Below, piece after piece: positions 8,468-46,548 of a DNA stretch of 46,548 bases. The position numbers and the translations under genes are program-made. The first letter of the stretch is position 1, and every line of letters starts with the position of its first letter. The DNA lies in contig JAFTKL010000027.1 of NCBI GenBank assembly GCA_017453285.1, forward strand, positions 1-46,548, written 5' to 3'. This stretch comes from Clostridia bacterium. GTDB lineage: Bacteria; Bacillota; Clostridia; Oscillospirales; CAG-272. The notes beneath the pieces were generated by a model, which saw only the letters and a program-made list of their open reading frames with translations, was not told the DNA's origin and ran no database searches.

Positions 8468-10249
8468 ATGAAAACAGTACTCAGATCTATTGCACTGATT
8501 ATCCTGCTGTCGATGTGTCTGTCACTTCTCGTTGCCTGCAACGGTGCAGAGGATGCGACCGAGCCGACAGCGACCGACGCTCCTACAGAGACGCCGACCG
8601 AGGCTCCTACCGACAAGCCCACGGAGAAGCCTACCGAACCCGTAGAACTTATGGATAAGAGCAGATTTAACCTTTTATATAAGAAAAAATGCGTTTGCGC
8701 TATCGTCATCCCTGACAACAGTACCGAGGAAGAGAAGGCAGTTGCAGAGAAGCTTGCCGCTCTCTTTTTGAATAAGGTCAAAAAGGCGACTGTCATACGC
8801 AAGGAAAGCAAGCTTACCGACGACCTGCCCTATACTATATTTATTGGTAACACAAATCAATCGGGCTCTAAGGATGCCATCGCCGCACTCGGCGAGCGCG
8901 AGGCGACTATCACTTCGAATGGAAATTCGCTCTTTTTGGTGTTTGATAACTACGCAGGCGGACGCGACGTAGTTGAGATCCTTGTTGATAGCATTAAGAA
9001 GGATAAGCAGGGGGAGAACGCTTGGCTGCCTCTCGACTACAGCCTTAAATACAAAGCGCCCCCAGAGATCGACGCATTCCCCGCATATGACGAAGGCACG
9101 GTTACGAATATGGATTCGGGATACAACACCGAGCTTCTTATTGCTGAATCCGTAACAACGAAAGGCTTTGAAGAATATTGCAATACTGTCGAGGCGGCAG
9201 GCTTCAAGCGCGATTTCGACAGAACCGAGGCAGACAACCGCTTTGTTACCTTCCTTGCGGCAAATCATTATATCTACATCTACCGCACAGCATATAACGG
9301 TCAGATGAGAGTAGTAAGCGGACCTATCGAGCAGTATGCTCGCCCTGACTACACCGAGGAGGACCGTAAGGAGAATACTATCCCTTATATTGCCTCTATT
9401 CCTCAGCCGGGCGACGGAGAGGGATATATATTCCGCCTGACAGACGGCAGATTTATTATTTTTGATAGTGGATACAAGGGAGACGACAGAGTTTATAAGA
9501 CTCTGCGCGAGCTTGAAAAGGGCGAGATCGTTATAGCCGCGTGGTTTATCTCTCATCCTCACGGCGACCACTATCCCGCATTCCTCAACTTCGTCAAGGA
9601 TCACGGATATGACCGCAGTATCACGATCCAGCGCGTGATGCACAATTACACCCATGCCGACAGATATAATATCAACGGCTCGGCAGGTCTTGACGAAGCA
9701 GGGAAGAACGTTACGGAGTTTTACAACGTGCTTGAAGAATATCTTCCCGACGTTCCTGTTATCAAGGTCCACACAGGACAGGTGATCAATTTTGGCGACA
9801 CCGAAGTAGAAATACTCTACACCGTCGAGGATATTATGCCGAAGAAGCTTCCCAATAACAACGATTCCTCGCTCGTTATCAGACTTCACATAGCCGATCA
9901 GTCGATAATCCTTCTTGCCGACACCTGCTATGACTCAGGACCTATTATGAATAAGATCTGGGGCTCTTATCTCAAGTCGGATATTATGCAGATCGCGCAC
10001 CACGGTATGTGGCCGTCGGTTGCCGAAATATATCACAGCATTCAGGCTGAGGTCGTTCTGTTCCCGTCTATGACCAAGAACGTAAAGAATTGGGTGGTCG
10101 ACAGCAGATGGGCGGCGGTAATGCAGGTGGTTCTTGATTACGCAGAGGATATCTACATCTCAGGCGACGCACTTACGGTGATCGAGCTTCCGCTCTGGCT
10201 TGAGTATAACAAGAATGACGTTCTCGAAATGCTCGCTGAACTCAGATAA
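8468..10249 (+). CDS. Lipoprotein with C-terminal metallo-beta-lactamase-fold domain
   Basis: Lipobox (LSLLVAC), a Thr/Pro/Glu linker, the HxHxDH motif (SHPHGDHY) and a later HHG. Confidence 0.75.
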   Translation: MKTVLRSIALIILLSMCLSLLVACNGAEDATEPTATDAPTETPTEAPTDKPTEKPTEPVELMDKSRFNLLYKKKCVCAIVIPDNSTEEEKAVAEKLAALFLNKVKKATVIRKESKLTDDLPYTIFIGNTNQSGSKDAIAALGEREATITSNGNSLFLVFDNYAGGRDVVEILVDSIKKDKQGENAWLPLDYSLKYKAPPEIDAFPAYDEGTVTNMDSGYNTELLIAESVTTKGFEEYCNTVEAAGFKRDFDRTEADNRFVTFLAANHYIYIYRTAYNGQMRVVSGPIEQYARPDYTEEDRKENTIPYIASIPQPGDGEGYIFRLTDGRFIIFDSGYKGDDRVYKTLRELEKGEIVIAAWFISHPHGDHYPAFLNFVKDHGYDRSITIQRVMHNYTHADRYNINGSAGLDEAGKNVTEFYNVLEEYLPDVPVIKVHTGQVINFGDTEVEILYTVEDIMPKKLPNNNDSSLVIRLHIADQSIILLADTCYDSGPIMNKIWGSYLKSDIMQIAHHGMWPSVAEIYHSIQAEVVLFPSMTKNVKNWVVDSRWAAVMQVVLDYAEDIYISGDALTVIELPLWLEYNKNDVLEMLAELR

Positions 10250-10337
10250 AGACAGAAATCTTTCTTTTCATAGTGTTCCTATGAAACCGGCGATAAAGCA
10301 AAAGAATAAATACGAATTTACTTGAAAGGAGAAAAGT

Positions 10338-10661
10338 ATGTTTTCGCTATTTTCAAAAAAAGTTATGGACGAAAAAGCAGCAAAAGATTTTTGGGCATGG
10401 TTTGAAGAACAAGAAGAATGGATTATAAATTGTCTAGCTAATCACGATTCTGCTTTTATTTGGGCAATTGATGAACGTTTAAAACCTGTATTTCCTTATT
10501 TTAAGAAAGAACTTGAATTCCAATTAGGGTATAACGAAGGAAAAGGTGAATTCTTTTTCTTCCACTTTGGAAATCAAAATCTGATCAAAGATGCTGATTC
10601 TCTTTCTAAAATGATGCCTGAAAATATTTCTGAACATTGGTCATTTATAGCCGAAAAATAA
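10338..10661 (+). CDS. Small hypothetical protein (low-GC islet)
   Basis: 107-aa ORF with RBS aaggag upstream and an intrinsic terminator directly downstream. No motif recognised. Confidence 0.55.
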   Translation: MFSLFSKKVMDEKAAKDFWAWFEEQEEWIINCLANHDSAFIWAIDERLKPVFPYFKKELEFQLGYNEGKGEFFFFHFGNQNLIKDADSLSKMMPENISEHWSFIAEK

Positions 10662-10668
10662 CAACAAG

Positions 10669-10697
10669 CCCCGACAGATTTTCAAGATCTGTCGGGG
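10669..10697. terminator. Bidirectional terminator shared by two convergent small genes
   Basis: ccccgacagat-tttcaag-atctgtcgggg. Confidence 0.75.
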
Positions 10698-10713
10698 TAT
10701 CTTTTAAGAAGTA

Positions 10714-10950
10714 TTATTCGTATTTCGGCTTCAGTAGCAGATGAGTGTCTAAATCAATTGTGTAGTCAATGCGAATGTCATCTGAATATGCTATCTCTTC
10801 ATATTGATAGAGAGAACAAAAAGCACAAACGAAATTTTCCTCGTTCACCGTTTTCAATGTCTCATCTATTGCACTTTTCAATTTATTCATATCGAGATGT
10901 CTTCCGTGGATTATCTTGTCCCCATATACAGATTCAATTTCTATCAGCAT
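10714..10950 (-). CDS. Small hypothetical protein (low-GC islet)
   Basis: 78-aa ORF convergent with 10338..10661, in the same AT-rich composition. No motif recognised. Confidence 0.5.
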   Translation of the reverse strand: MLIEIESVYGDKIIHGRHLDMNKLKSAIDETLKTVNEENFVCAFCSLYQYEEIAYSDDIRIDYTIDLDTHLLLKPKYE

Positions 10951-28270: not shown

Positions 28271-29479
28271 ATGAAACTTTCAACCAAACTTTTTGCTCTT
28301 GTTCTTTCTATCGTTATGATCCTTGGTGTTTTCAGCCTTACTTCTTGTAACGCTGACAATCCCGCAAAGGACAACGAGAAGATCAAGATCGGTCTTACCG
28401 GACCTCTTACCGGTGGCGCTTCCATCTACGGAATCGCAGTTAAGAACGCAGCTAAGCTCGCAGTTGACGAGATCAACAAGGCAGGCGGTCTTGACGGTAT
28501 CCTCTTCGAGCTCGAGATGCTCGACGACAAGCACGATGCTACTACTGTTGAAAACCTTTACGCAGAGCTCTACGAGGGCGGTATGCAGGTTTCTCTCGGA
28601 ACCGTAACCACTGCTCCCGGTCTTAACTACAAGAGCTTCGCTAACGAGGACAACGTATTCTTCATCACCCCCTCCGCAACCGGTGACGCTATCCCCGAGT
28701 TCGCAAACGGCTACCAGATGTGCTTTGCAGACTCCAACCAGGGTACTGCTGCTGCTAAGTTCTTCAACGAGAACTACCAGGGCAAGAAGATCGGCGTATT
28801 CTACAAGACCGACGACGAGTACTCCGTAGGCATCTACAACAACTTCAAGAAGACTCTTGACGCATCCTTTGGTGACATCTCCGCAACCACCGCTTCTTTC
28901 AACGGTGACGCTTCCACCTTCGACTCTCAGATCCAGATCCTCAAGGACTGTGATGTCGTATTTATGCCTATCTACTACACCCCCGCTTCTCAGTTCATGA
29001 CTCAGGCTAACGGCGTAGAGAACAGCATCAAGGTTTACTACGGATGCGACGGCTTCGACGGCATTGACGCTATCGAGGGCTTTGACATCGCTACCGTTCC
29101 TCAGGAAGTTTCTTATCTCTCTCACTTCAACTCCACCGCTACCGAGGGTCCCGCTGCTGACTTCATCGCTAAGTACAACGATGCTTACGATGAGGAGAAG
29201 GAGCCCCTCAACCAGTTCGGCGCTGCTGCTTACGACTGCGTATACGCAATCTTCGAGGCTCTCAAGGTTGCTAAGGCTAACGGCAAGGACGTAGCTGCTA
29301 ACACCTCCGCTTCCGATCTCTGCGAGATCCTTAAGGAAGTATTCAACAGCGATTCCTTTGAGTTCAGAGGCATCACAGGTAAGACTGAGGGTAACGAGAA
29401 GTCCCACATCACCTGGAGCGCTGACGGTACTGTTCAGAAGGAAGCTATCAAGTACATTGTAAAGGAAGCTAACTCCTGA
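28271..29479 (+). CDS. Branched-chain amino-acid ABC transporter substrate-binding lipoprotein (LivJ/K-like)
   Basis: Lipobox (FSLTSC). IKIGLTGPLTGGASIYG and DDKHD are typical of the Peripla_BP_6 family. It is followed by livHMGF. Confidence 0.85.
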   Translation: MKLSTKLFALVLSIVMILGVFSLTSCNADNPAKDNEKIKIGLTGPLTGGASIYGIAVKNAAKLAVDEINKAGGLDGILFELEMLDDKHDATTVENLYAELYEGGMQVSLGTVTTAPGLNYKSFANEDNVFFITPSATGDAIPEFANGYQMCFADSNQGTAAAKFFNENYQGKKIGVFYKTDDEYSVGIYNNFKKTLDASFGDISATTASFNGDASTFDSQIQILKDCDVVFMPIYYTPASQFMTQANGVENSIKVYYGCDGFDGIDAIEGFDIATVPQEVSYLSHFNSTATEGPAADFIAKYNDAYDEEKEPLNQFGAAAYDCVYAIFEALKVAKANGKDVAANTSASDLCEILKEVFNSDSFEFRGITGKTEGNEKSHITWSADGTVQKEAIKYIVKEANS

Positions 29480-29577
29480 TAGGCTTGTAAGATAAGCTAT
29501 TCGATCAAAACCTTTTAACGATTGCCGATGCTTTTGCATTGGCAATCGTTTGTTAAGGTAACGAAGAAGGATTTAAT

Positions 29578-30444
29578 ATGGAACTTTTAATCACGTTCGT
29601 AAACGGTCTGAGTCTTGGCGGCATCTACGCGATGATCGCACTCGGATACACGATGGTTTACGGTATCGCAAAAATGCTTAACTTCGCACACGGCGACGTA
29701 ATAATGGTCGGCGGATATATGATCCTGCTCTTTTTGCCGATCAACCCGATCGTAGCTATAATCGCGGCGATCATCTTCTGTACCGTCGTGGGCATAGTAA
29801 TAGAAAAGGTAGCATACAAGCCGCTTCGTGGCGCATCGCCACTTGCGGTCCTTATCACAGCTATCGGTGTAAGCTACCTGCTTCAGAGCGTGGCGCAGAT
29901 CGCGTTCGGCTCTGCCTCGAGATTCGTCGTTATCGCAAATCTCGGCACTCTCAAGATCGGCAGCCTTGCAATAGGCTACAGCACTATCATAACCCTTATC
30001 TGCTCTATGATCGTAATGATCGGACTCAACCTTTTCGTTAAGTTCTCCAAGACCGGACGCGCGATGATCGCGGTTTCCGAGGACAAGGGAGCTGCGCAGC
30101 TTATGGGTATCAACGTCAATAATATAATAATGATAACTTTCGCCATCGGATCAGCACTTGCGGCACTTGCAAGCCTTTTCTTCTTGCTCAAGGCTCCCAG
30201 CATCACGCCCACCTTTGGTGCACTTCCCGGAATTAAGGCGTTCACTGCTGCGGTTATCGGCGGTATCGGCTCTATCCCCGGTGCGATGGTCGGAGGACTC
30301 TTACTCGGAGTTATCGAGTGCTTTGCGCAGTCTGTTCCAGCAATTGCGCCTTATACCGATGCAATCGAGTTTTCCATACTCATTATAATTCTCCTTGTTA
30401 AGCCCACGGGCTTGCTTGGTAAGAAGAGAAGGGAGAAGGTATAA
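29578..30444 (+). CDS. livH: Branched-chain amino-acid ABC transporter permease LivH
   Basis: 288 aa polytopic protein with GLSLGGIYAMIALGYTMVYG and NFAHGD motifs. Confidence 0.85.
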   Translation: MELLITFVNGLSLGGIYAMIALGYTMVYGIAKMLNFAHGDVIMVGGYMILLFLPINPIVAIIAAIIFCTVVGIVIEKVAYKPLRGASPLAVLITAIGVSYLLQSVAQIAFGSASRFVVIANLGTLKIGSLAIGYSTIITLICSMIVMIGLNLFVKFSKTGRAMIAVSEDKGAAQLMGINVNNIIMITFAIGSALAALASLFFLLKAPSITPTFGALPGIKAFTAAVIGGIGSIPGAMVGGLLLGVIECFAQSVPAIAPYTDAIEFSILIIILLVKPTGLLGKKRREKV

Positions 30445-37391: not shown

Positions 37392-37447
37392 TCGTCCTAT
37401 TCGGTTTTTAGTGATTTCTCCGATAAGAACATCACACTTTTCGTTCG

Positions 37448-38317
37448 CTATTTTTTATTGATGCCCAAATTGAGTTCGTTGAGCAGTGCAGAGCCGAGGA
37501 TGAGGATTCCGCCGATGATCTCGAACGGCGAGATAGGCTCTTGCAGGATGGCGACCGAGGCTATCACCGCGACGAGCGGGTCGATATAGCTCATTACGGC
37601 GACCTCCTGACCGCGCATATCCTTGAGCGAGCTGAAATAAAGGCAATACGCGACGCCGGTGTGGATGAGTCCGACCGTCAGAAGCAGGAAAAGTCCGCTC
37701 ATTTGCAGGGAAGTGAGGTGAAATCCGCCCGTGAGCGCGACGTATGGGATCAGCACTATTGCCGCCGCCGAAAACTGCAGGAGCGTGCGCAGAATTCCGT
37801 CGATCTGCCCGATATATTTGTTGATCAGCACGACGGTTGCGTAAAGGCAAGCCGCGCCGAGTCCGAGAAGCACGCCGACCGTGCTCGTGCCGCCCGAGCC
37901 GATACCCGTGATCAGAAGCACGCCGAGCGTCGAGAATATAAAGCAGAGCCACTGCTTTGCCCTCATTTTTTCCTTGAAGAGAACGAGAGAGAGCAGAGTG
38001 ACGAGCACGGGCGCGAAATAATAGGCGAGCGTCGCGCTGGAGATGGTGGTGTAGCGGTAAGCCTCGAATAGAAGTATCCAATTAAATCCGAGCGCCGCGC
38101 CCGACAGAAAGAGCAGGGGGAGCGCGCGGCGGATGCTCTGCTTAGCGCCCGTGTTATCCTTCTTTCGCACAAGCATAAACGCGCCGACAAGAATTATAGC
38201 TAAGAGCGAGCGGTAGAGCGCGATCTCCGCGGCAGAGAGAGCTATTCCGCGCACGAAAAGACCGATCGTGCCGAAAATGACCATTGACGATATCAAAAAT
38301 ATCCGTGAGCGACCCAT
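37448..38317 (-). CDS. EamA/DMT-family transporter
   Basis: Ten predicted TM segments forming two EamA repeats. The start at 38317 follows RBS aaaggaggg. The upstream part of the longer ORF overlaps the promoter at 38346-38374. Confidence 0.8.
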   Translation of the reverse strand: MGRSRIFLISSMVIFGTIGLFVRGIALSAAEIALYRSLLAIILVGAFMLVRKKDNTGAKQSIRRALPLLFLSGAALGFNWILLFEAYRYTTISSATLAYYFAPVLVTLLSLVLFKEKMRAKQWLCFIFSTLGVLLITGIGSGGTSTVGVLLGLGAACLYATVVLINKYIGQIDGILRTLLQFSAAAIVLIPYVALTGGFHLTSLQMSGLFLLLTVGLIHTGVAYCLYFSSLKDMRGQEVAVMSYIDPLVAVIASVAILQEPISPFEIIGGILILGSALLNELNLGINKK

Positions 38318-38345
38318 ATCCGCCCTCCTTTTGTATGATGGGATA

Positions 38346-38374
38346 ATTATACCATAGAAATGTGCGTATTTCAA
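38346..38374 (-). promoter_or_regulatory. sigA-type promoter of the EamA gene
   Basis: - strand: TTGAAA (38369-38374), 17-nt spacer, TATAAT (38346-38351). Confidence 0.6.
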
Positions 38375-38415
38375 TATAAAAACAAAAAACAGACGGCATA
38401 TACCGTCTGTTTTTA

Positions 38416-38436
38416 TGGCACGGCGTAAGGGATTCG
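38416..38436 (-). repeat. Exact 21-nt copy of the 3' end of tRNA-Arg(ACG), with a copy of its terminator alongside
   Basis: tggcacggcgtaagggattcg at 38416-38436 equals 38599-38619. The flanking hairpins cagacgg..ccgtctg (38390-38410) and ccagacag..ctgtctgg (38571-38592) are also paralogous. Confidence 0.8.
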
Positions 38437-38598
38437 TTCTTGATTTTTGCTCGATGTTTCGGATTTGATCAAGGTAACATCTCGCAAAAATCTTTGGTCA
38501 CCGTTCACAAAACAACTCACAGGGTTGTTTTGTTCACTGCGTTAGAACCCCTCTTGTTGAAATAAAAAACCAGACAGTAGATACTGTCTGGTTTTTTA

Positions 38599-38675
38599 TG
38601 GCACGGCGTAAGGGATTCGAACCCCCGACCTTTTGGTTCGTAGCCAAACACTCTATCCAGCTGAGCTAACGCCGC
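38599..38675 (-). tRNA. tRNA-Arg (anticodon ACG), 77 nt, CCA encoded
   Basis: Manual cloverleaf. Acceptor is GCGGCGT/ACGCCGT. D arm is GCTC-AGCTGGATA-GAGT. Anticodon arm is TTTGG-CTACGAA-CCAAA. T arm is GGGGG-TTCGAAT-CCCTT. It closely resembles Firmicute Arg-ACG tRNAs. Confidence 0.85.
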
Positions 38676-38844
38676 ATGTGCGCTTTCGGAGTACTCTCTC
38701 AATCACGCCCGAATATTTTAACACATTTTTGTGCGTTTGTCAAGAGCTTTTTGAAAAATATTTTGGAAATCGAAAAAATATTTCAATCTGTTGAAAGACT
38801 TGCGTTAATGTGATATAATAAAGAAAAAGCTTAAAGGAGAAAAT

Positions 38845-39492
38845 ATGGCGACCTATCTGTTTGATTTCGACGGTACGCTGGTTGACTCGATGCCGACATA
38901 CGTGGCGGCGGTCTTGCGCGTGCTTGACGATCAGAATATAAAATACGACAAAAAGGCTTTGATCAAGACCATCACGCCGCTCGGCTTTGGCGGTACGGCG
39001 CGCTACTACATAGAGCAGTTTGGACTGACGCTCAGCATCGAGGAAATAGTGGCGCAGATGCACAAAAACGCGCTTGAGGGCTATCTTTATTCCGTGCCCG
39101 CAAAGCAAAATGTTATCAAGACCTTGCGCGCGCTCAGAGATCGCGGCGACGATCTGAGCGTTCTGACCGCGAGTCCGCACGCTACGCTCGATCCCTGCCT
39201 TCGTCGGCTAGGAATATACGATCTTTTTTCTAACGTGTGGTCCTGCGAGGATTTTGCCACCACTAAAGCCGACGTCAACATCTATCTGATGGCGGCAGAA
39301 AAGTTGGGTGTGGCGGTCGGCGAGATGATCTTCCTTGATGACAACTACAACGCAGATCTGACGGCAAAGCGCGCGGGCGCGAAGGTCGTGGGCGTCTACG
39401 ACGAATCCTCGGCAGAGTACGAGAGCGAGATCCGCGGTATTTGCGACGCGTATATCCGCGATTTTTATGAGCTTATCGACCTGAAATTATAA
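38845..39492 (+). CDS. HAD-superfamily hydrolase (subfamily IA phosphatase)
   Basis: Motif I FDFDGTLVDS, motif II LTAS, motif IV FLDDN. Confidence 0.85.
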   Translation: MATYLFDFDGTLVDSMPTYVAAVLRVLDDQNIKYDKKALIKTITPLGFGGTARYYIEQFGLTLSIEEIVAQMHKNALEGYLYSVPAKQNVIKTLRALRDRGDDLSVLTASPHATLDPCLRRLGIYDLFSNVWSCEDFATTKADVNIYLMAAEKLGVAVGEMIFLDDNYNADLTAKRAGAKVVGVYDESSAEYESEIRGICDAYIRDFYELIDLKL

Positions 39493-39518
39493 ATTTTTCA
39501 ACTTTTTTTGCAGGGAAG

Positions 39519-39561
39519 TGTAATAATCGGGCATATTTTTCTGTCTATTAGGGTGAAGGGC
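39519..39561 (+). promoter_or_regulatory. Conserved upstream motif of the sigma paralogs, copy 2
   Basis: tgtaat-N20-ctatta-gggtgaagggc, ending 25 nt before the ATG. Confidence 0.4.
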
Positions 39562-39585
39562 AATCTTTAGAGAGGAGTTTGGACT

Positions 39586-40143
39586 ATGGAAGACAAAAGA
39601 ATAGTGGATCTCTATTGGATGCGCTCCGAGAGTGCGATCAGCGAGACCGACAAGAAATACGGCAAATATTGCCGCTACATAGCCGAGCGCATACTCGAGA
39701 GCGAGGAGGACGCGCACGAGGTGCAGAATGACACCTATCTTCAAGTATGGAACACCGTGCCGCCAAATCGCCCCGATCCGCTCAAACCGTATGTAGGCGC
39801 GATCAGCCGAAATCTCTCGCTCAATCGCTACGAGGCGAAACACGCGCAGAAGCGAGAAGGAGTGCTTGGTGAGGCACTCGAGGAGCTGTCCGAGTGTATT
39901 GCGCAGAAAGATGACATCCCTACCGAGCGTGAAGAGCGACTTGGCGAGCTTCTCGATAGCTTCCTTGCGACACTTCCCAAGCGCACGAGAAGGGTATTTC
40001 TGCGCAGATATTGGTACGCGAGCAGTATAGAGGAGATCGCAAAGGACTACGGAATGAGCGAGAACCACGTGACCGTAATGCTTTGCAGAACCAGAAAAGC
40101 TCTGGCAGATATCTTGCAAAAGGAGGGATTTCTCAATGAATGA
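39586..40143 (+). CDS. RNA polymerase sigma factor, sigma-70 family (ECF-like), paralog 2
   Basis: MEDKRIVDLYWMRSESAISETDKKYG...EVQNDTYLQVW (region 2) and IAKDYGMSENHVTVMLCRTRKAL (region 4). Confidence 0.85.
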   Translation: MEDKRIVDLYWMRSESAISETDKKYGKYCRYIAERILESEEDAHEVQNDTYLQVWNTVPPNRPDPLKPYVGAISRNLSLNRYEAKHAQKREGVLGEALEELSECIAQKDDIPTEREERLGELLDSFLATLPKRTRRVFLRRYWYASSIEEIAKDYGMSENHVTVMLCRTRKALADILQKEGFLNE

Positions 40144-41617
40144 AAAGGATATTTTGAGGGCTCTGGGCGGCGTAAGTCCGGAATTTATAGCCGATGCCGC
40201 ACCGAAAGAAAAGCTCAGACATAGAAACCCGATGCTCTTTCGCCTTATAGCCGCGCTGATCTCGGTGGCGATACTTATGGGCGCGCTCTTCGCGGCGATC
40301 GTAGTGCCCAAAATAGTAAACGAGATGTTCGTCCCCACGCCGTCGCCCTACGGCAGATACGTGCTCTCGCTTGCAAAGTACCCAGAGATGATGCAGATGC
40401 CGAAGAGAGAGGATTATGCGAGCTACAGTGAATATTCTGATGCCAAATACGATTGGCAACGAGCAACGGCAAAGCAATCCGGGTCAGGCTTGAATGGAGA
40501 GTCTGTTGCTAAGCTTTATCCGTTCTTCTCTGATTTTACAAGTGAAGCTTTGAAGACGGATAAAGACGAAAATCTGGTCGTTTCGCCGCTTACAATGTAT
40601 ATGCTTCTTTCTATGCTCGGAGAGATGACCGACGGAGAGACGCGAGAGCAGATATTTGACGTTCTGAACATTTCGACAATCGAGGAACTGCGCACTCTGG
40701 CGAGTGGAGTATGGAATAGTACGTATTGTGATAACGGTGGCTTTAAATCTGTACTTGCTAACTCGGTATGGTTGGATGAGAGCATCAGATTTAACAGAAA
40801 CGTTGCACATACTTTGTCTGAAATCTATTATGCTTCGTCATTTGAGGGCGATTTTTCCAAGAAGAAATACGTTAGTGAATACTGCAATTGGATGAATGAG
40901 AATACGGGAAATCTGTTTGGATTCTCTCCGGAAAATGCGTCCGTTGACGATCAAACCTTGATGAGCATTGTCAGCACGCTGTATTTTGAATCCGCATGGA
41001 GAGATGATAACTCCTTTAACTCAAATAACAACTACAACGATGTTTTCCATACGAATTCGGGTGACGTTGAAGTAACCTATATGAAGAGAATGATCGAACG
41101 TCATCTTTTTGGTTCGGAATACTTTTATGCGACATATCTTGAGCTTGGTAGCGACGGAAAAATGTGGATCTTTCTTCCCGATGAAGAAGACACTGTTGAG
41201 GACGTGTTGTCAAGTAAAGATTTTATGAACTTGGTAACCAAAGGAAACGGTGTTGAATGCAAGGAATATGAAATTACGCTATCCCTGCCAAAGTTTGATA
41301 TTACTTCACATGACAGCGCAGAAAAATATCTTGAAAGACTTGGAATAACCGATATCTTCGGCGCAAATGCTGACTTTTCACCCGTGACAGACAGTAATGT
41401 GGCTGTAGGAGAAATTCTGCAGGGAGCGCGCCTGAAAATAGACGAGGAAGGTGTTGTGGGCGGAGCGTATAGTGAAGCGGTGATTTATTACGGCGAACCA
41501 CTACCCCTTCAAAAGAATATCGATTTAGTAGTAAACCGTCCGTTTGTCGTTGCTATTACAACACGCGCAAACCTGCCGCTCTTTATCGGCGTCGTCAACG
41601 ATCCCACCAAAAATTGA
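40136..41617 (+). CDS. Single-pass membrane protein: anti-sigma-like N-terminus fused to an extracytoplasmic serpin domain
   Basis: 8-nt overlap with the sigma gene. It carries the shared N-motif DILRALGGVSPEFIADAAP and one TM helix. Serpin hallmarks occur in order: NLVVSPLTMYMLLSMLGEMTDGETREQI, NWMNENTGNLF, LPKFDI, LGITDIF, hinge KIDEEGVVGGAYS, NRPFVVAI. Confidence 0.8.
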   Translation: MNEKDILRALGGVSPEFIADAAPKEKLRHRNPMLFRLIAALISVAILMGALFAAIVVPKIVNEMFVPTPSPYGRYVLSLAKYPEMMQMPKREDYASYSEYSDAKYDWQRATAKQSGSGLNGESVAKLYPFFSDFTSEALKTDKDENLVVSPLTMYMLLSMLGEMTDGETREQIFDVLNISTIEELRTLASGVWNSTYCDNGGFKSVLANSVWLDESIRFNRNVAHTLSEIYYASSFEGDFSKKKYVSEYCNWMNENTGNLFGFSPENASVDDQTLMSIVSTLYFESAWRDDNSFNSNNNYNDVFHTNSGDVEVTYMKRMIERHLFGSEYFYATYLELGSDGKMWIFLPDEEDTVEDVLSSKDFMNLVTKGNGVECKEYEITLSLPKFDITSHDSAEKYLERLGITDIFGANADFSPVTDSNVAVGEILQGARLKIDEEGVVGGAYSEAVIYYGEPLPLQKNIDLVVNRPFVVAITTRANLPLFIGVVNDPTKN

Positions 41618-41631
41618 TATATTATCAAGAG

Positions 41632-41663
41632 ACCGCCTGCCGAGTTTTCGGCAGGCGGTTTTG
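41632..41663 (+). terminator. Intrinsic terminator; the identical sequence recurs at 45587
   Basis: accgcctgccgagttttcggcaggcggtttt. Confidence 0.85.
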
Positions 41664-41675
41664 TATTTGATGGAT

Positions 41676-42110
41676 GGACGGAAGTTCATTTTTAACCGAT
41701 ACGACATTGGACAGTCGAGGACGCCTGTCCCTACAAACAAGAGAGATAATCGCCGCGCGTTCGTCATTCAACACAACAACCTATTTCTATCTTGGCGGTA
41801 GGGGCGACCTGTGGTCGCCCGCTTTGAAACAAAAGTTACTTTGTGTCATACAACGGGCGAGATAGATGTTTTTTCTTTGGATTACAGACGGAAGTTCATT
41901 TTTTAACCGTAATGACTATTATCACCTCTCAGTCTGCATACAACTTCGTATCGAGTTTGCTTTGCAAACATCGGCAGACAGCTCTCCTCGAGGAGAGCCT
42001 TTAAGTATCATTGTTTTACGTTTTTTAGGACCGTCGGCAACTTGTTGCGCAACAAGTTGCGCAACAAGTTGCAGGGACGCACGGTCCCTACAATCAGAGA
42101 GATAATCCCC
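41676..42110. repeat. Array of GTAG-tagged REP-like palindromes and other hairpins (array B)
   Basis: Units at 41709-41734 (..cctgtcc-ctac), 41798-41820 (gtag-gggcgacc tgt ggtcgccc, opposite orientation) and 42028-42091 (ggaccgt...acggtcc-ctac). The block acggaagttcattttt(t)aaccg occurs at 41678 and 41888. Palindromes gtttgc/gcaaac and gctctcctcgaggagagc are also present. Confidence 0.65.
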
Positions 42111-42143
42111 ACGGTTTCGGTGGTCGACGGAACGTAAAATCTA

Positions 42144-42368
42144 TATCTCACTCTTCATAATAAAAAGAAACACGCGGTAGGTTGTCTGTCCGCGTGTTTC
42201 TACATCGCTATTAAATTAAACTCAGAAAGGGAATATCGTTATAGGTTACAGTATCCCAAACTTTCGTAGGGAATATCGTTACGAGTTATAACAAAACCCT
42301 TGACCAACCTCCATTCAAGTTCTTTGGCTCCACCTTTCTCGAAAGAAAGGTGGAAAAAACGCATCCCC
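42144..42368 (-). ncRNA. Conserved ~225-nt structured element, copy B
   Basis: Starts (ggggatgcg) 10 nt after the GH25 stop. Hairpin ccacctttc-tcgaaa-gaaaggtgg lies at 42330-42353. It carries the conserved ccaaagaacttgaa and gtttgggatactgtaa blocks. The terminator hairpin at 42167-42200 is followed by ttttt on the - strand, then attatgaagagtga. Confidence 0.45.
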
Positions 42369-42378
42369 AAAACTAACC

Positions 42379-43656
42379 TCAGAACCCGTTGAGTCCCCAT
42401 TTGATCATTATTTCTTTATAATTCTTGTATGCGTAGTTGAGGTCGAAAGAGCAGTTAAAGCCGTCGATCTTGCCCTCCTCGGAGTATTGCCACATACCGA
42501 GCTGCTTGCCGTACTTCTGCTCGTTCCAGGTCGGCTTTTCGGTGAGCGGGTAGCGCGCGTACCACACGTCGTAGAGCGTGAATATCTTCGCGCCGTCGAG
42601 GATGTAGGTCAGCCAATTGTGGTTGGAATAGAGCCCCGCATAGTAGCCCTCGGACTGAAGAAGCGTGATAAAACGCTCGCACATCTCGCTAAGGTAGTTC
42701 TTGCCGAGAGCCTCAAGTGAGGCATCCTCAAGGTCGAGATATATCGGGTACTCGAACTTCTTGCCCTCAAGATAGGAAAGCAGATCGCGCGCGTCCTTCT
42801 CGATGCCCTCAAGCGTGGTCGCATAGGTGTAGAAATAAACTCCGATCTCCAGTCCCGCGGCGCGCGCGCCCTCGTAGTCCATCTCAAATGTCGGCTCAAG
42901 TCCGCTCTTGGTGCTGCCTGCCTTCAGGATCACAAAATCAACACCCGAGTCGGCGATCTTCTTCCAATCGAGCGGCAGATAGTTGTCCTCTGTGTCGGTG
43001 CCGTGGTTCCAACGCGACACATCAATGCCGCTTGCCACCACCTCGGAGCTGCCCACGTAGGCATTCTCGAGAATGTCACTGTAGTAGACGTAATCGGCGG
43101 TGTAGGAAAACGAGCACTCGCAGACGTAGGTCGTGCATCCCGGCGTCGTCGCGGTCGGGCGCGTGGTGGTCACTTCAAAGCTGTGACCGAGTGAGTCGAT
43201 ATAGTCGGACGTGTATTCGTAGTCACACGCGCGGCAGGTGTAGTGCGTAAATCCCTCGGTCGTGCAGGTCGGTTCGGTTACTTCCTTTGCGAAGCTGTGC
43301 CCGTAGGGAGTCAGAAAATCCGAGTCGTACGCGTAGCCGCAGGCGCATTCGTAGTGCGTGTAGCCCTGAGCGGTGCAGGTGGGCGGATAGATAGACATAG
43401 TCGGCTTGTGCAGAGAGCAGGGAAGATCGCGCTCTACAACCTTGCCGCACTTCTTGCACGCGCTTTCCTCGGTTCCGAGGCGGTTGCACTCGGGCTCGAG
43501 CACCGTCTGCCACTCGCCAAACTCGTGCGCGCAGGGCAGACTCTCCTTTGGTATCTCAACATCGCCGTCGGGAGTATTGCTGCCGTCCGACGAGCAGGAG
43601 AGAAGAGAGAGCAAAAGAATAATGATAAATCCAAAAATAAATATTCTGGTCTTCAA
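42379..43656 (-). CDS. GH25 muramidase lipoprotein with N-terminal Cys-rich repeats
   Basis: TTG start with RBS ggagga and a lipobox (LSLLSC). There are about 4 Cys-rich modules. The GH25 signature is GIDVSRWNH...LDWKKIADSGVDFVILKAG...YFY...DLE...WQYS. Confidence 0.8.
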   Translation of the reverse strand: MKTRIFIFGFIIILLLSLLSCSSDGSNTPDGDVEIPKESLPCAHEFGEWQTVLEPECNRLGTEESACKKCGKVVERDLPCSLHKPTMSIYPPTCTAQGYTHYECACGYAYDSDFLTPYGHSFAKEVTEPTCTTEGFTHYTCRACDYEYTSDYIDSLGHSFEVTTTRPTATTPGCTTYVCECSFSYTADYVYYSDILENAYVGSSEVVASGIDVSRWNHGTDTEDNYLPLDWKKIADSGVDFVILKAGSTKSGLEPTFEMDYEGARAAGLEIGVYFYTYATTLEGIEKDARDLLSYLEGKKFEYPIYLDLEDASLEALGKNYLSEMCERFITLLQSEGYYAGLYSNHNWLTYILDGAKIFTLYDVWYARYPLTEKPTWNEQKYGKQLGMWQYSEEGKIDGFNCSFDLNYAYKNYKEIMIKWGLNGF

Positions 43657-43697
43657 AGAAATATCCTCCGAAAATGGTCATATATGCTAACGAGGAT

Positions 43698-43726
43698 ATT
43701 GTACCACAATTTGCCGCGCTTGTCAA
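43698..43726 (-). promoter_or_regulatory. sigA-type promoter of the GH25 gene
   Basis: - strand: TTGACA (43721-43726), 17-nt spacer, TACAAT (43698-43703) with an upstream TG. Confidence 0.6.
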
Positions 43727-43766
43727 TCCTATACGCACATCTGCCGCTTGGTAATATCTTCCGTGC

Positions 43767-43795
43767 TTGACGGAGGCGCGGCAGAGTGGTATAAT
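43767..43795 (+). promoter_or_regulatory. sigA-type promoter upstream of sigma paralog 3
   Basis: TTGACG (43767-43772), 17-nt spacer, TATAAT (43790-43795) with an upstream TG. Confidence 0.6.
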
Positions 43796-43833
43796 GAAAT
43801 AAATTTTAAAATTTTTAAAAAAATTTGAAATTT

Positions 43834-43877
43834 TGAAATATTCGCACATCGTTTTGCGTCTATATAGGTGAAAGGGC
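43834..43877 (+). promoter_or_regulatory. Conserved upstream motif of the sigma paralogs, copy 3
   Basis: tgaaat-N20-ctatat-aggtgaaagggc. Confidence 0.4.
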
Positions 43878-43925
43878 CTTTCAAATCTTTCGATTCTTTC
43901 AATCCACAATGAAAGGAGTGACGGT

Positions 43926-44480
43926 ATGGATGATAAGCAAATTGTAGAACTCTTTTGGGAACGTTCCGAGGATGCAATTGCCGAGACCGATAGAAAATAC
44001 GGCAGATATATTTTGTTCATAGCCCAAAACGTGCTTTCTGATGACGAGGACGCACGCGAGGTGCAGAATGACACCTATCTGCGCACTTGGGATAGCATTC
44101 CGCCCGAGCGACCGACTGCGCTGAGAGCCTACGTCGGCGCAATATGCCGAAATCTTGCGCTCAGCAGATACAGAAGAAAATATGCGGAGAAACGCCAAGG
44201 TTGCGTGGATACCGCGATCGACGAGCTTGCCGACTGCCTGCCCGACGGGAATGACGGCGACCGCGTTGCAAGCGAGAGGATAGGTGATGCGCTCAACAGA
44301 TTTTTAGAGGGGCTTGAGCCGAACGAGAGAAAGGTGATCGTGCTGAGGTATTGGTATATGTGCAGTATCGACCGCATCGCCGAGGAATGCTCGATGAACA
44401 AAAACACCGTCGCAACGGTGCTTTTCAGAAAAAGACGAGAGCTTAAAGCTTTCTTAGAAAAAGAGGGGGTAAACGTATGA
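43926..44480 (+). CDS. RNA polymerase sigma factor, sigma-70 family (ECF-like), paralog 3
   Basis: MDDKQIVELFWERSEDAIAETDRKYG...EVQNDTYLRTW and IAEECSMNKNTVATVLFRKRREL. Confidence 0.85.
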   Translation: MDDKQIVELFWERSEDAIAETDRKYGRYILFIAQNVLSDDEDAREVQNDTYLRTWDSIPPERPTALRAYVGAICRNLALSRYRRKYAEKRQGCVDTAIDELADCLPDGNDGDRVASERIGDALNRFLEGLEPNERKVIVLRYWYMCSIDRIAEECSMNKNTVATVLFRKRRELKAFLEKEGVNV

Positions 44481-45532
44481 AGAAAGAAGATATTTTCAAT
44501 GCCTTTGAAGAGCTTGACCCGAAGTTTATAGAGGAGGCAGCGCCGAAGATGAATAAAGTAAAAAAGAACACCTTTGTTTTGCGCATCGCCGCAGTTGCCG
44601 CGTGTGTCGCCCTGCTCGTAAGTGTCGTAGTGGTAAGCACGCTTATGCTTAACCGAGAGGATGAGGATCCACCCGACGTGCCGAGTGAGACGATCACGCC
44701 CGACGAAAAGGCAGAGTACATTATGTATATTGATGTCGGTATGGATGCAAATGCTCCTCCTTTGGAGACTGATAAATTCACCGTAAAAACGGATTCAGCA
44801 GAAGAACTGGACCTTTCGTGTTTGAATAGAATAGAGAAAGAAAGCGTGGAAAATACTACAAATCAAATATCACTTGATTTGTTAAATAACCATTGGAAAC
44901 TAGAATACAATAGGACATTCGAAAGAGGTCTTTATCATAGCGACAATTTTTCACATCTCGGTACCTATGATGAATATGTCTCAGATGATGCAGTGGTATA
45001 TATCAATAAAATCAATGGAGAACTGATGTTTTTATCAGACAAGGAAATCGATAGAACAGCAGAAGGTGATTTCAGCATAGAAGAAGGCAAACAAGCGGCG
45101 AAAGAGATACTTGCTATTCTGTATGGCGAAGAAGTTCTTGAATATTATGGAGAACCAATATTTAGCGATACAGTTTTGGAGAATAATCTCAGTCTTGGAC
45201 AGGAAGTCTTGATTAAAGTTGTTTATGAAAAGGCAGCCTTAGGGTACAGAACCGACGATAGAATTACCGTTAAATTCAATAGAGAAGGAAAGTTGGTTTC
45301 TATCAATGCTATGAAACGGAATACTATGACGCGTGTAGAAGAAGATATTACCAAGGAACAGACTGACAAAGCATTGAATGTGTTGAAGCAGCAATTTCCG
45401 AATGATAAAATAGAATCAGCAATAATATCTGTTGCCGCTGATGGAAAATATTATATAACAACTACTGTTATAAGATATCTTTCAATGCATCCTGTACGTT
45501 ACCCGCTGAAGTTAGCGATGAATATACAGTAA
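44477..45532 (+). CDS. Single-pass membrane protein, putative anti-sigma partner (module 3) with an unrecognised ectodomain
   Basis: ATGA overlap with the sigma gene, N-motif DIFNAFEELDPKFIEEAAP and a TM helix (IAAVAACVALLVSVVVVSTLML). The ~270-aa ectodomain is encoded by much more AT-rich DNA. Confidence 0.75.
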   Translation: MKKEDIFNAFEELDPKFIEEAAPKMNKVKKNTFVLRIAAVAACVALLVSVVVVSTLMLNREDEDPPDVPSETITPDEKAEYIMYIDVGMDANAPPLETDKFTVKTDSAEELDLSCLNRIEKESVENTTNQISLDLLNNHWKLEYNRTFERGLYHSDNFSHLGTYDEYVSDDAVVYINKINGELMFLSDKEIDRTAEGDFSIEEGKQAAKEILAILYGEEVLEYYGEPIFSDTVLENNLSLGQEVLIKVVYEKAALGYRTDDRITVKFNREGKLVSINAMKRNTMTRVEEDITKEQTDKALNVLKQQFPNDKIESAIISVAADGKYYITTTVIRYLSMHPVRYPLKLAMNIQ

Positions 45533-45586
45533 ACGTATTGCATACTCAAGCGTACGTTTGTGCGCTTGAGTATTATAATCTAACCA

Positions 45587-45618
45587 ACCGCCTGCCGAGT
45601 TTTCGGCAGGCGGTTTTT
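45587..45618 (+). terminator. Intrinsic terminator, identical to the one at 41632
   Basis: accgcctgccgagttttcggcaggcggttttt, preceded by a second hairpin atactcaagcg..cgcttgagtat (45543-45574). Confidence 0.85.
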
Positions 45619-45824
45619 GTGCGCTTATCGTTAAATACATCTTCACTTGTTATCCGCTTTTTCTTTTGACTCATAAGGTGCAAAAGAAAAAGCTACCAAA
45701 AAGAAAACACCGAAAAGGGTGTTTCGCTCGTTGCGACGAGCGACCGACGTTTCGCCGTCGGCACACGACAAACTTTTGAAAAAGTTTGATCAAAACTTTC
45801 CTGCGGCGCACCCCATGAGGTTTA

Positions 45825-46047
45825 GATGTCACTCTTCACAATAAAATAGCAACCCGTGGTAGCCTGCTGTCCACGGGTTGCTTCCTCGCATTGATACTAA
45901 ATCACACAGCGAGAATATCGCTTTGGTTTACAGTATCCCAAACATCTTTAGAGAATATCGGCTAGAGTCACGTACAAACTCTATAACAACCCTCATTCAA
46001 GTTCTTTTGGTTCTTTTCTCCGAAAGAAAAGAACGAAAATCGCATCC
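45825..46047 (-). ncRNA. Conserved ~225-nt structured element, copy C
   Basis: ggatgcg follows the partial GH25 stop codon directly. Hairpin ttcttttc..gaaaagaa lies at 46011-46033. The terminator hairpin gcaacccgtgg..ccacgggttgc (45849-45881) is followed by a T-rich tract on the - strand, then attgtgaagagtga. Confidence 0.45.
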
Positions 46048-46548
46048 TCAAAATCCATTCAAATTCCACTTTTGCATTATTTCCTTATAATCCTTATACG
46101 CATAGTTGAGGTCAAAGCTGCCCTCGAGCCCGTCGATCTCGCCGCTTTCGGTGTACTGCCACATTCCGAGCTGCTTGCCGTACTTTTCTTCATTCCAGGT
46201 CGGCTTCTCGGAGAGTGGGTAGCGCGCGTACCAAAGGTCAAAGAGCGTGACTATCCGCGCAGTATCGAGGATCGTCGTCAGCCAGGTGTGGTTGGTGTAG
46301 AGCCCCGCGTAGTAGCCGTTCTCCTGCAGAGTGCAGAGAAAGGTTTCACACATCGCGCTGAGATTATTCTTGCCGAGGGAAGAGAGCGAAGGATCCTCGA
46401 GGTCGAGATATATCGGATATTCAAATTTCTTTCCTTTTATATAAGAGAGCAGGTCGCGTGCGTCCTTCTCGATTCCCTCAAGCGTGGTCGAATAGGTGTA
46501 AAAATACGCGCCGACCTCGAGCCCCGCCGCGCGTGCGCCCTCGTAGTC
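46048..46548 (-). CDS. GH25 muramidase, C-terminal part (5' end lies outside the window)
   Basis: The frame is open to the window edge. The translation (..YFYTYSTTLEGIEKDARDLL..MWQYTESGEIDGLEGSFDLNYAYKDYKEIMQKWNLNGF) is colinear with the C-terminal third of 42379..43656. Confidence 0.8.
   Translation of the reverse strand, partial: DYEGARAAGLEVGAYFYTYSTTLEGIEKDARDLLSYIKGKKFEYPIYLDLEDPSLSSLGKNNLSAMCETFLCTLQENGYYAGLYTNHTWLTTILDTARIVTLFDLWYARYPLSEKPTWNEEKYGKQLGMWQYTESGEIDGLEGSFDLNYAYKDYKEIMQKWNLNGF

Follow-up and report, generated by a model that had tools for sequence, protein, structure and literature searches.

The window, by which we mean the whole analysed stretch of 46,548 nucleotides (nt), is contig C12 of G000, a metagenome-assembled genome (MAG) of a Clostridia bacterium with a total length of 1.67 Mb in 101 contigs, a G+C content of 50.4% and a completeness of 68%. 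It contains two modules in which a gene for a sigma factor of the extracytoplasmic function (ECF) type is followed by a gene for a membrane-anchored partner protein with an extracytoplasmic domain (ectodomain): sig1 with a serpin-domain partner (the serpin gene, 40136–41617) and sig2 with the partner that is our main subject (p2, 44477–45532, 351 residues). The end of sig2 overlaps the start codon of p2 by 4 nt (ATGA, 44477–44480), in keeping with translational coupling, and the serpin gene overlaps the stop codon of sig1 in the same layout. Nine sigma/partner pairs occur in the genome (three on C12, two on C13 and one each on C62, C64, C5 and C72), the partner lying directly downstream of its sigma gene, again with this layout, at all nine loci. 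We propose that the ectodomain is very probably a cassette that is swapped by recombination among uncultured ruminant-gut Clostridia, with the sigma gene and the membrane anchor remaining in place. A first-pass annotation, made from the letters of the window alone, had suggested such swapping between conserved flanks; the suggestion is now supported by direct observation of replacement within syntenic flanks, by breakpoints, by synonymous sites that are saturated in blocks, by trees that conflict and by cassettes that recur in more than one slot, including one contig (L119) that carries a serpin domain behind sig2.

According to Pfam, the sigma factor is of the ECF type with regions 2 and 4 only, and sig2 scores above the cut-off of NCBIfam TIGR02937 (60 bits versus 42.9); its G+C content at third codon positions (GC3) is 0.58. 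No match to p2 was found in Pfam or NCBIfam and no anti-sigma domain (ASD, zf-HC2 or RsgI_N) could be recognized there, for which reason the partner is referred to here as anti-sigma-like. The cytoplasmic part of p2 comprises only about 24–30 residues, and the 24-residue motif at its N-terminus (the N-motif) is presumed to bind the cognate sigma factor. N-motifs of types A (with sig2), B (with the sigma factor on C62), C and D co-vary with the sigma paralogues wherever the encoding locus was examined.

In an AlphaFold2 model of p2, a hydrophobic helix, in keeping with a single-pass membrane topology, spans residues 27–59, and most of residues 100–351 have a pLDDT above 80 and form a β-rich part followed by two helix-plus-sheet units. 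A Foldseek search with the ectodomain model gave a single significant match in the PDB, the C-terminal tandem PepSY domains of YpeB (PDB code 5boi; E = 8.5e-5, probability 1.00), with low TM-scores (0.26 and 0.37), a sequence identity of 12% and no Pfam PepSY match at E <= 0.01. YpeB partners the cell-wall lytic enzyme SleB, and genes for GH25 muramidases flank the present locus; a functional link between the p2 ectodomain and GH25 is speculation. Other alleles of this ectodomain are 88%, 83% and 65% identical to that of p2, with the most distant at 31%, and paralogues within the same genome are found on C62 (about 41% amino-acid identity), C13 and C72 and, as a lipoprotein version, on C74. 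The features of the region are collected in Table 1, in which G014 denotes the MAG of a sister species from water-deer rectum (Clostridia bacterium RGIG9137). Elsewhere, C-numbers designate genome contigs, L-numbers metagenome contigs or loci and P-numbers proteins, and G018 is a more distant relative.

Table 1. Features of the two sigma/partner modules and neighbouring genes, in window coordinates (TM, transmembrane; aa, amino acids).
Feature	Position	Strand	Remarks
sig2, ECF-type sigma gene	43926..44480	+	Pfam Sigma70_r2 and Sigma70_r4_2; backbone
p2 N-motif, aa 1-24, MKKEDIFNAFEELDPKFIEEAAPK	44477..44548	+	Stays with its sigma gene; junction 1 at 3' end
p2 TM helix and juxtamembrane linker, aa 25-71, ending NREDEDPPDVPSE	44549..44689	+	Proposed left homology arm; junction 2 at 44688-44690
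p2 AT-rich ectodomain cassette, aa 72-351	44690..45532	+	GC 0.36, GC3 about 0.31; tandem PepSY-like fold (predicted)
First 3' hairpin, atactcaagcg…cgcttgagtat	45542..45573	+	Directly after p2 stop codon
Conserved terminator hairpin	45587..45617	+	Right junction and proposed arm; 31/31 nt identical to 41632-41662
sig1, ECF-type sigma gene	39586..40143	+	Pfam matches; 95% aa identity to G014; backbone of upstream module
Serpin-partner anchor (N-motif, TM helix, juxtamembrane part), aa 1-103	40136..40444	+	Backbone composition; GC3 0.66 up to codon 97
Serpin ectodomain cassette, AT-richer	40445..41579	+	Pfam Serpin, E 5.6e-56
Terminator hairpin of serpin operon	41632..41662	+	Same 31 nt as 45587-45617
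GH25a, gene for GH25 muramidase lipoprotein	42379..43656	-	Pfam Glyco_hydro_25; 97% aa identity to G014; between both modules
GH25b, second GH25 gene, cut by window end	46048..46548	-	Pfam match; 97% aa identity to G014, 79% to first GH25

The composition of both partner genes changes along their length. The first-pass annotation had counted 38 and 16 G+C in the 60-nt lines starting at 44581 and 44821 of p2, and 33 and 21 in those starting at 40261 and 40981 of the serpin gene, and had described a break between a GC-rich 5' part and an AT-rich ectodomain. All four counts are exact and the ectodomain of p2 is AT-rich, but the 5' part is not GC-rich: its G+C content (0.50) is typical of the genome (0.504). 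GC3 is about 0.60 in codons 1–80 of p2 and about 0.30 thereafter, and in the serpin gene it stands at 0.73–0.83 around codons 31–90 and then at about 0.42. A change-point test gave a significant step in both genes, after codon 83 of p2 (GC3 from 0.59 to 0.31, z = 4.68, permutation p of about 0.0005) and after codon 97 of the serpin gene (from 0.66 to 0.44, z = 3.94, permutation p = 0.0015). Among the 1064 called genes of at least 200 residues, p2 has the second-largest high-to-low step in GC3 and the serpin gene the tenth-largest; the ranking was confined to this direction because the gene caller, which relies on a codon score, missed a number of AT-rich partner genes and, where it misplaced the start of an open reading frame (ORF), created spurious low-to-high steps. 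Taken as a whole, p2 has a GC3 of 0.37, below the 1st percentile of the genome (0.435; median 0.63).

An anchor-to-ectodomain step in GC3 is present in about seven of the nine partners of the genome, at codons 46–128; it is absent from the C12c partner (217 residues, GC3 of 0.71 throughout) and from that on C5, which is low throughout. The level reached depends on the type of cassette, with a GC3 of about 0.29–0.35 for PepSY-like, 0.44–0.47 for serpin and 0.44–0.48 for β-propeller ectodomains. Divergence in place, by vertical descent under positive or relaxed selection, would ascribe the drop to the amino-acid make-up of a hydrophilic ectodomain as compared with a TM helix, and G+C at first and second codon positions is indeed lower in the ectodomain, where N, K, E, I and Y are abundant. 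However, the step is equally large at third codon positions and is therefore more than an amino-acid effect. It is also missing from related Oscillibacter-like sigma/partner pairs with a conserved partner of 178 residues (GC3 of 0.74, 0.73 and 0.73), so that the step goes with cassette turnover and not with the protein family as such.

Alignment of the locus across relatives gave the picture that the first-pass annotation had anticipated for exchange between conserved flanks: in G014 and several metagenome contigs the flanks are syntenic, with 88–97% nucleotide identity, and the ectodomain is either replaced by a non-homologous domain or present as an allele with saturated synonymous sites. 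A scan of metagenome contigs with sig2 returned mostly distant Oscillibacter-like homologues (45–48% identity), which were of no use for strain comparison, and an exact-protein look-up of sig1 gave no match. Contig C129 of G014 is collinear with positions 37400–46548 of the window, and its EamA, HAD and sig2 proteins have amino-acid identities of 97.7, 98.1 and 86% to those of the window, those of sig1, GH25a and GH25b being listed in Table 1. The serpin partners of the two genomes are 99% identical over the first 75 residues and 49% identical afterwards, with a synonymous divergence (dS and pS are Nei–Gojobori estimates in these comparisons between genomes) of 0.12 over residues 1–100 as against a saturated pS of 0.76 in the ectodomain. 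In the nucleotide alignment, a block of 95.7% identity ends at 40444 and similarity returns at 41580. On the p2 side, a block of 91.7% identity (42136–44547) ends at 44547 and similarity returns at about 46051; the two partners have only their first 24 residues in common, that of G014 continuing as an unrelated β-propeller-type protein of 633 residues.

The same pattern is found at all six orthologous sigma/partner loci of G000 and G014: the sigma factors are 86–99% identical and the ectodomains 21–67%, with synonymous sites saturated inside the divergent blocks and a dS of about 0.1–0.4 outside them. Values of dS of 0.09–0.21 in sigma gene and anchor compare with a pS of 0.7–1.0 in the ectodomain. 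Between C72 and contig C30 of G014, for example, dS is 0.09–0.14 in sigma gene and anchor, pS is 0.46–1.2 (mostly 0.7–1.0) at residues 61–270 and 0.05–0.17 at residues 271–339, and the ratio of nonsynonymous to synonymous divergence (dN/dS) within the divergent block is about 0.12, a sign that an old allele is under purifying selection. Block-wise divergence is likewise seen in the serpin and C64 pairs. For C64, the ectodomain shares 81% identity with its counterpart in G018 (sigma factor 83%) but only 48% with the one in the sister species G014 (sigma factor 98%). On these sequence comparisons, the divergent blocks are imported old alleles and not the product of fast evolution in place. Vertical divergence, which would be helped by the more frequent acceptance of recent GC-to-AT substitutions in the ectodomain described below, is already contradicted by synonymous sites that are saturated in blocks and little diverged outside them, by the low dN/dS, by the non-homology of several replacements (PepSY-like versus β-propeller versus serpin) and by the incongruent trees and step-free relatives, and we regard it as very improbable.

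A recent duplication with one swapped cassette was also considered as the origin of the two modules of the window and was ruled out, the sigma factors being 49% identical and both modules being present already in G014; by this measure, the modules are old paralogues. In G018 the corresponding region (C9; L014) has the order EamA, tRNA, GH25, a sig2-like gene, a β-propeller partner of 607 residues and GH25, and lacks HAD, sig1 and the serpin module, so that this module is itself an insertion or deletion between species.

The left ends of the exchanged segments can be placed to within a few bases. Three metagenome contigs (L110, L111 and L020) are 84–94% identical to the window up to 44688–44690 and unrelated beyond, and similarity is lost at the same point in L112, which derives from a slot next to MreB, and in the intragenomic paralogue on C62. 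Compared base by base, identity in these five falls from 85–100% to about 25% within a few bases of codons 70–71 (…PDVPSE|). A second junction follows codon 24 (…AAPK|), where similarity to G014 stops at 44547 and that to L119 at 44548. In the Logan data, run X3 has unitigs that stop at 44688 and run X11 has unitigs that start at 44685 (four runs with short unitigs only; joints with sides of <30 nt were disregarded). Run X3 also contains two variants of 44932–45244, with 5 and 41 differences, which suggests that several alleles or contexts coexist in single samples.

The strongest single item for cassette swapping is L119. Its gene order is GH25a, sig2 and a gene (encoding protein P0038) that joins a p2-type N-motif (type A) to the TM helix and serpin domain of the serpin partner, the junction lying immediately after the AAPK codons. 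With a serpin behind sig2, the serpin and PepSY-like domains are alternative cassettes of one sigma slot. The converse case is provided by L109 (protein P0003), which has a different N-motif (type C) and the same ectodomain, with 91% nucleotide identity from 44560 onwards, and P0025 is present in two genomic slots. The first-pass annotation had looked to conflicting phylogenies of anchor and ectodomain as a sign of exchange, and the phylogenies do conflict: a maximum-likelihood tree of 32 p2-type ectodomains mixes the N-motif types, requiring 10 changes of type (the minimum being 3 and the mean of shuffled trees 17.5), and one clade of near-identical ectodomains bears N-motifs of types A, B and C.

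Synonymous divergence along paralogous modules sets the TM helix and linker apart. Between C12b and C62, pS is 0.71 in the sigma gene, 0.78 in the N-motif and 0.75 in the ectodomain, compared with 0.31 in the TM/linker segment (codons 25–71; binomial p of about 7e-8, on rounded counts). Such a low value is expected of a segment that is repeatedly used, and hence homogenized, as a recombination arm.

Larger units also seem to be exchanged. A slot consisting of RecD2, a ComF-like gene, a sigma/partner module and MreB (G000 C72:6535–8135; L098; L016 of G018) holds different modules in different species, the sigma factors being less than 60% identical between species and MreB 94–96%. In L112 a sig2-type module precedes an MreB that is 100% identical to that of G000. 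Whole sigma/partner modules, not ectodomains alone, seem to be replaced at this slot.

At the right-hand side, the first-pass annotation had pointed to an identical 28-nt terminator stem behind both partner genes and had counted REP-like (repetitive extragenic palindromic) repeats, a structured element and the GH25 gene as further parts of the right flank. The terminator is present exactly at 41632 and 45587, with the identity running to 31 nt, and it is this conserved hairpin, rather than the other elements, that we take to be the arm. The REP-like repeats and the 225-nt structured element are dispersed over the genome in dozens of copies and are not specific to the two loci. The intergenic regions 41618–42378 and 45533–46047 are both built from such repeat modules, which occur genome-wide in dozens of copies, many of them at contig ends, and probably cause the fragmentation of the assembly. 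A scan of 38000–46548 against Rfam gave only a tRNA (38602–38675), so that the 3' elements are not accounted for by any known RNA.

Exactly eight copies of the terminator stem (CGCCTGCCG…CGGCAGGCG), differing in their loops, are present in the assembly: five lie behind sigma/partner operons, two behind lipoprotein genes of low GC3, of which one encodes the lipoprotein version of the p2 ectodomain, and the eighth bounds a small low-GC island on C74. At least seven of the eight are directly downstream of low-GC3 genes for exported proteins. Partner genes of G014, G018 and several metagenome contigs are also followed by this stem (about 10 loci in relatives). In L112 the switch from homology with the sig2 module to homology with the MreB slot takes place within the terminator hairpin. 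The first 3' hairpin is likewise found behind the very different P0025 allele in L111 and L112, and similarity to L111 returns at 45542. On C74, stem copies at 28726 and 30347 bracket the low-GC island (partly contained in locus L011), which consists of the lipoprotein p2-type ectodomain (28757–29653, GC3 of 0.29) and an ORF of 111 residues (GC3 of 0.30) and looks like a cassette outside any sigma operon.

Some relatives have a second gene in front of the terminator. L104 to L106 carry the 88% allele of p2 and, just before the terminator, an extra gene for a secreted protein of 489 residues (L104:1153–2622; L105), and the C62 paralogue has the same gene at 9356–10816, with 69% amino-acid identity to the L104/L105 copy. 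The protein (486–489 residues, GC3 of 0.31–0.32) has weak Pfam matches in L104/L105 to Big_2 and to the lectin family RicinB. In the window, no such gene is present at 45576; a second gene can thus form part of the AT-rich payload of the operon.

The proposed mechanism is as follows. A backbone made up of the ECF sigma gene, the 24-residue N-motif and the TM helix with its linker would be inherited with the chromosome and share the typical composition of the genome. The ectodomain cassettes (PepSY-like, serpin and β-propeller) would be drawn from an old, highly diverged AT-rich pool and be exchanged between strains, species and paralogous sigma/partner slots of the genus, most likely by homologous recombination through short conserved arms. 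The left arms would end just after …EEAAPK (codon 24) or …NREDExxPDVPSE (codons 70–71), and the right arm would be the terminator hairpin, with stem CGCCTGCCG/CGGCAGGCG, or a point within homologous alleles. Since both left junctions are downstream of the N-motif, each sigma factor would keep its cognate motif while the sensor changes. Diversifying or balancing selection on an exposed sensor or bait domain may maintain the diversity of the cassettes.

A dedicated site-specific system of the integron or shufflon kind, with the invariant hairpin as an attC-like site, would account for a stem that is unchanged at the eight loci here and at those in relatives while its loops vary and the adjacent coding DNA is saturated. 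It would also give a role to the 8-mer TGCCGAGT (44677–44684 and 45593–45600) that is shared by the left junction (GACGTGCCGAGTGAG) and the stem/loop of the terminator (CCTGCCGAGTTTTCGG), although this match was noticed post hoc and may be due to chance. The assembly, however, contains a single tyrosine recombinase gene (PF00589), which is on another contig (C42) and not beside any sigma/partner locus; at 68% completeness a recombinase could have been missed. Moreover, there are two or more left junction positions and others inside homologous alleles, the crossover points vary within the arms, and the hairpin with the T-run that follows it resembles an ordinary intrinsic terminator. With the only recombinase gene at a distance, general homologous recombination is the economical mechanism, and we infer that it, and not a dedicated recombinase, carries out the exchange; a site-specific system appears very improbable.

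Mosaics of this kind might also be produced by the mis-assembly of metagenomes across short repeats, given that the evidence comes entirely from MAGs and metagenome contigs and that the dispersed repeats flanking the region fragment assemblies. The final k-mer of the k141 contigs, however, greatly exceeds the length of the sequence shared at the junctions (about 12–50 nt), and independent samples yielded the arrangements repeatedly (P0025 on 7 contigs, P0005 on 15, P0036 on 2). L111 and L112 differ by 1.5% and are hence distinct molecules, and L019, from a second sample, is 99.8% identical to the window over 43307–45535, that is, across both junctions. An origin of the mosaics in assembly errors is thus extremely improbable.

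The first-pass annotation had called the composition of the ectodomains foreign-looking. They are atypical and AT-rich, but a foreign donor was not found and the pool looks endemic to the genus. Recent horizontal transfer from unrelated low-GC organisms, which would have left the composition of the donor, would fit an ectodomain with a G+C content of 0.36 in a 50% G+C genome, a whole-gene GC3 below the 1st percentile and the patchy distribution of the p2-type ectodomain, which occurs in 3 of 24 congeneric species. Against this, of 400 other genomes sampled across the order only one contains the p2-type ectodomain, and the sample yielded no low-GC donor; among 38 proteins from a search of 5.8 billion, the only long-range matches carry the family's own anchors, save for P0013. 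This protein of 376 residues combines an EF-G-like GTPase N-terminus with the C-terminal two-thirds of a p2-type ectodomain; it probably stems from a chimeric contig or gene call and was not used as evidence. The alleles also reassort among paralogous slots of the same clade, the lipoprotein genes of the genome have an equally low GC3 and recent substitutions within the cassette are themselves strongly AT-biased. A low-GC donor therefore seems very unlikely, and the low G+C content probably arises within the cassette pool.

Of the 40 genes with a GC3 below 0.46, most code for lipoproteins or sigma partners, the former (predicted from a signal peptide plus Cys) making up roughly a third and the latter numbering about seven. 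In this organism, exposed envelope proteins thus seem to be AT-rich in general. Polarized recent GC-to-AT changes number 0.149 per site in the ectodomain and 0.081 in the flanks (about 1.8 times; Fisher p of 0.006), as against 0.050 and 0.051 for AT-to-GC changes (Fisher p of 1.0). The chances are about even that the cassettes evolve under a weaker GC-maintaining force, be it codon selection or GC-biased gene conversion, the latter being blocked within alleles that are too diverged for internal recombination.

Several points weigh against the swapping of cassettes as we describe it. The comparisons are all of MAGs and short metagenome contigs, with no within-species set of complete genomes among them, so that rates and directions of the events cannot be estimated. 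The change-point in GC3 (codon 83) is about 12 codons 3' of the mapped junction (codons 70–71), and relative to G014 the junction of p2 sits at codon 24; the GC step is then a property of the type of cassette and not the scar of one event. The invariant stem of the hairpin could point to a sequence-specific mechanism, the binding of sigma by the N-motif is an assumption for a protein in which no anti-sigma Pfam domain was detected, and the polarized test compares 33 with 54 GC-to-AT changes, a small sample, using distant outgroups.

The exchange of cassettes on a fixed backbone has several implications. The junctions amount to a design rule, supplied by nature, for the points at which one sensor can take the place of another while sigma and anti-sigma factors stay paired. 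The ectodomains are the part of the envelope signalling of these gut bacteria that turns over fastest, which makes them candidate targets in an arms race, and the comparison of arms with cassettes within one gene offers a clear natural setting in which to ask why accessory segments that recombine tend to be AT-rich. For annotation, a compositional break within a gene can mark an allelic cassette and need not mark a foreign island. More tentatively, and with somewhat less than an even chance of being right, the cassettes, as protease-inhibitor-like and ligand-binding ectodomains, might form a combinatorial repertoire of sensors or baits that exists at the level of the population on a fixed ECF sigma/anchor chassis. 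Arms conserved for the purpose (the PDVPSE linker and the invariant hairpin) would serve its exchange, an arms race with proteases, lytic enzymes, phages or host immunity would drive it, and AT-richness would be the signature of recombination in whole units that escape GC-biased gene conversion.

A search of the literature for recombining or hypervariable anti-sigma ectodomains gave nothing relevant; papers on cellulosomes mention both anti-sigma factors and serpins. The phenomenon itself is of a known kind, recombinational mosaicism as in Rhs/CDI tips or flagellin, and it is its occurrence in the sensor domain of an ECF sigma/anti-sigma-like pair for which we found no report.

In Rhs and contact-dependent inhibition (CDI; CdiA-CT) loci, a GC-rich conserved core is followed by swappable AT-rich C-terminal tips that are bounded by a short motif (PxxxxDPxGL or VENN). 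The present genes resemble them in the split between a conserved N-terminal and a variable C-terminal part at a short peptide motif, in the sharp drop in G+C content at that point and in the recombination of tips among cores. They differ in that a signalling protein, coupled to an ECF sigma factor, is here variable in its extracytoplasmic domain and that the right boundary is a conserved terminator hairpin. No small immunity-like ORF was found after the p2-type partner, as would be expected of a toxin/immunity pair, and the ectodomains are serpin, PepSY-like or β-propeller domains; the resemblance lies in the mode of evolution and not in membership. Mosaic genes for surface proteins, such as fliC of Salmonella and Escherichia coli, pneumococcal PspA and CbpA and streptococcal emm, have conserved ends and recombining hypervariable middles. 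As here, old diverged alleles are moved by homologous recombination in the flanks, dS is saturated within the block and the G+C content is often lower, whereas in the present case non-homologous domains alternate at one slot, paralogous loci take part in the exchange and the role of the protein is putatively regulatory, not that of a structural antigen.

A similar architecture is found in modular anti-sigma factors such as those of the SigI/RsgI pairs of Clostridium thermocellum, with CBM (carbohydrate-binding module), GH (glycoside hydrolase) or PA14 sensors, and of SigV/RsiV, in which RsiV is a lysozyme receptor; SigI belongs to a separate sigma-70 family and SigV is of the ECF type. In these, too, the gene for an alternative sigma factor precedes that of a partner that crosses the membrane once, has a short N-terminus in the cytoplasm and binds ligands with its ectodomain, and several paralogous pairs with different sensors occur within one genome. 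The N-motif of the present partners differs in comprising only about 24 residues and in having no anti-sigma Pfam match. In the known systems, sensor diversity is seen among paralogues or over long evolutionary distances, whereas here sensors are exchanged between the near-identical backbones of strains and sister species, through recurring arms and with junctions resolved to the base pair. If the tentative reading of a combinatorial repertoire given above is true, this repertoire would represent the receptor-swapping counterpart of the swapping of tips in polymorphic toxins.

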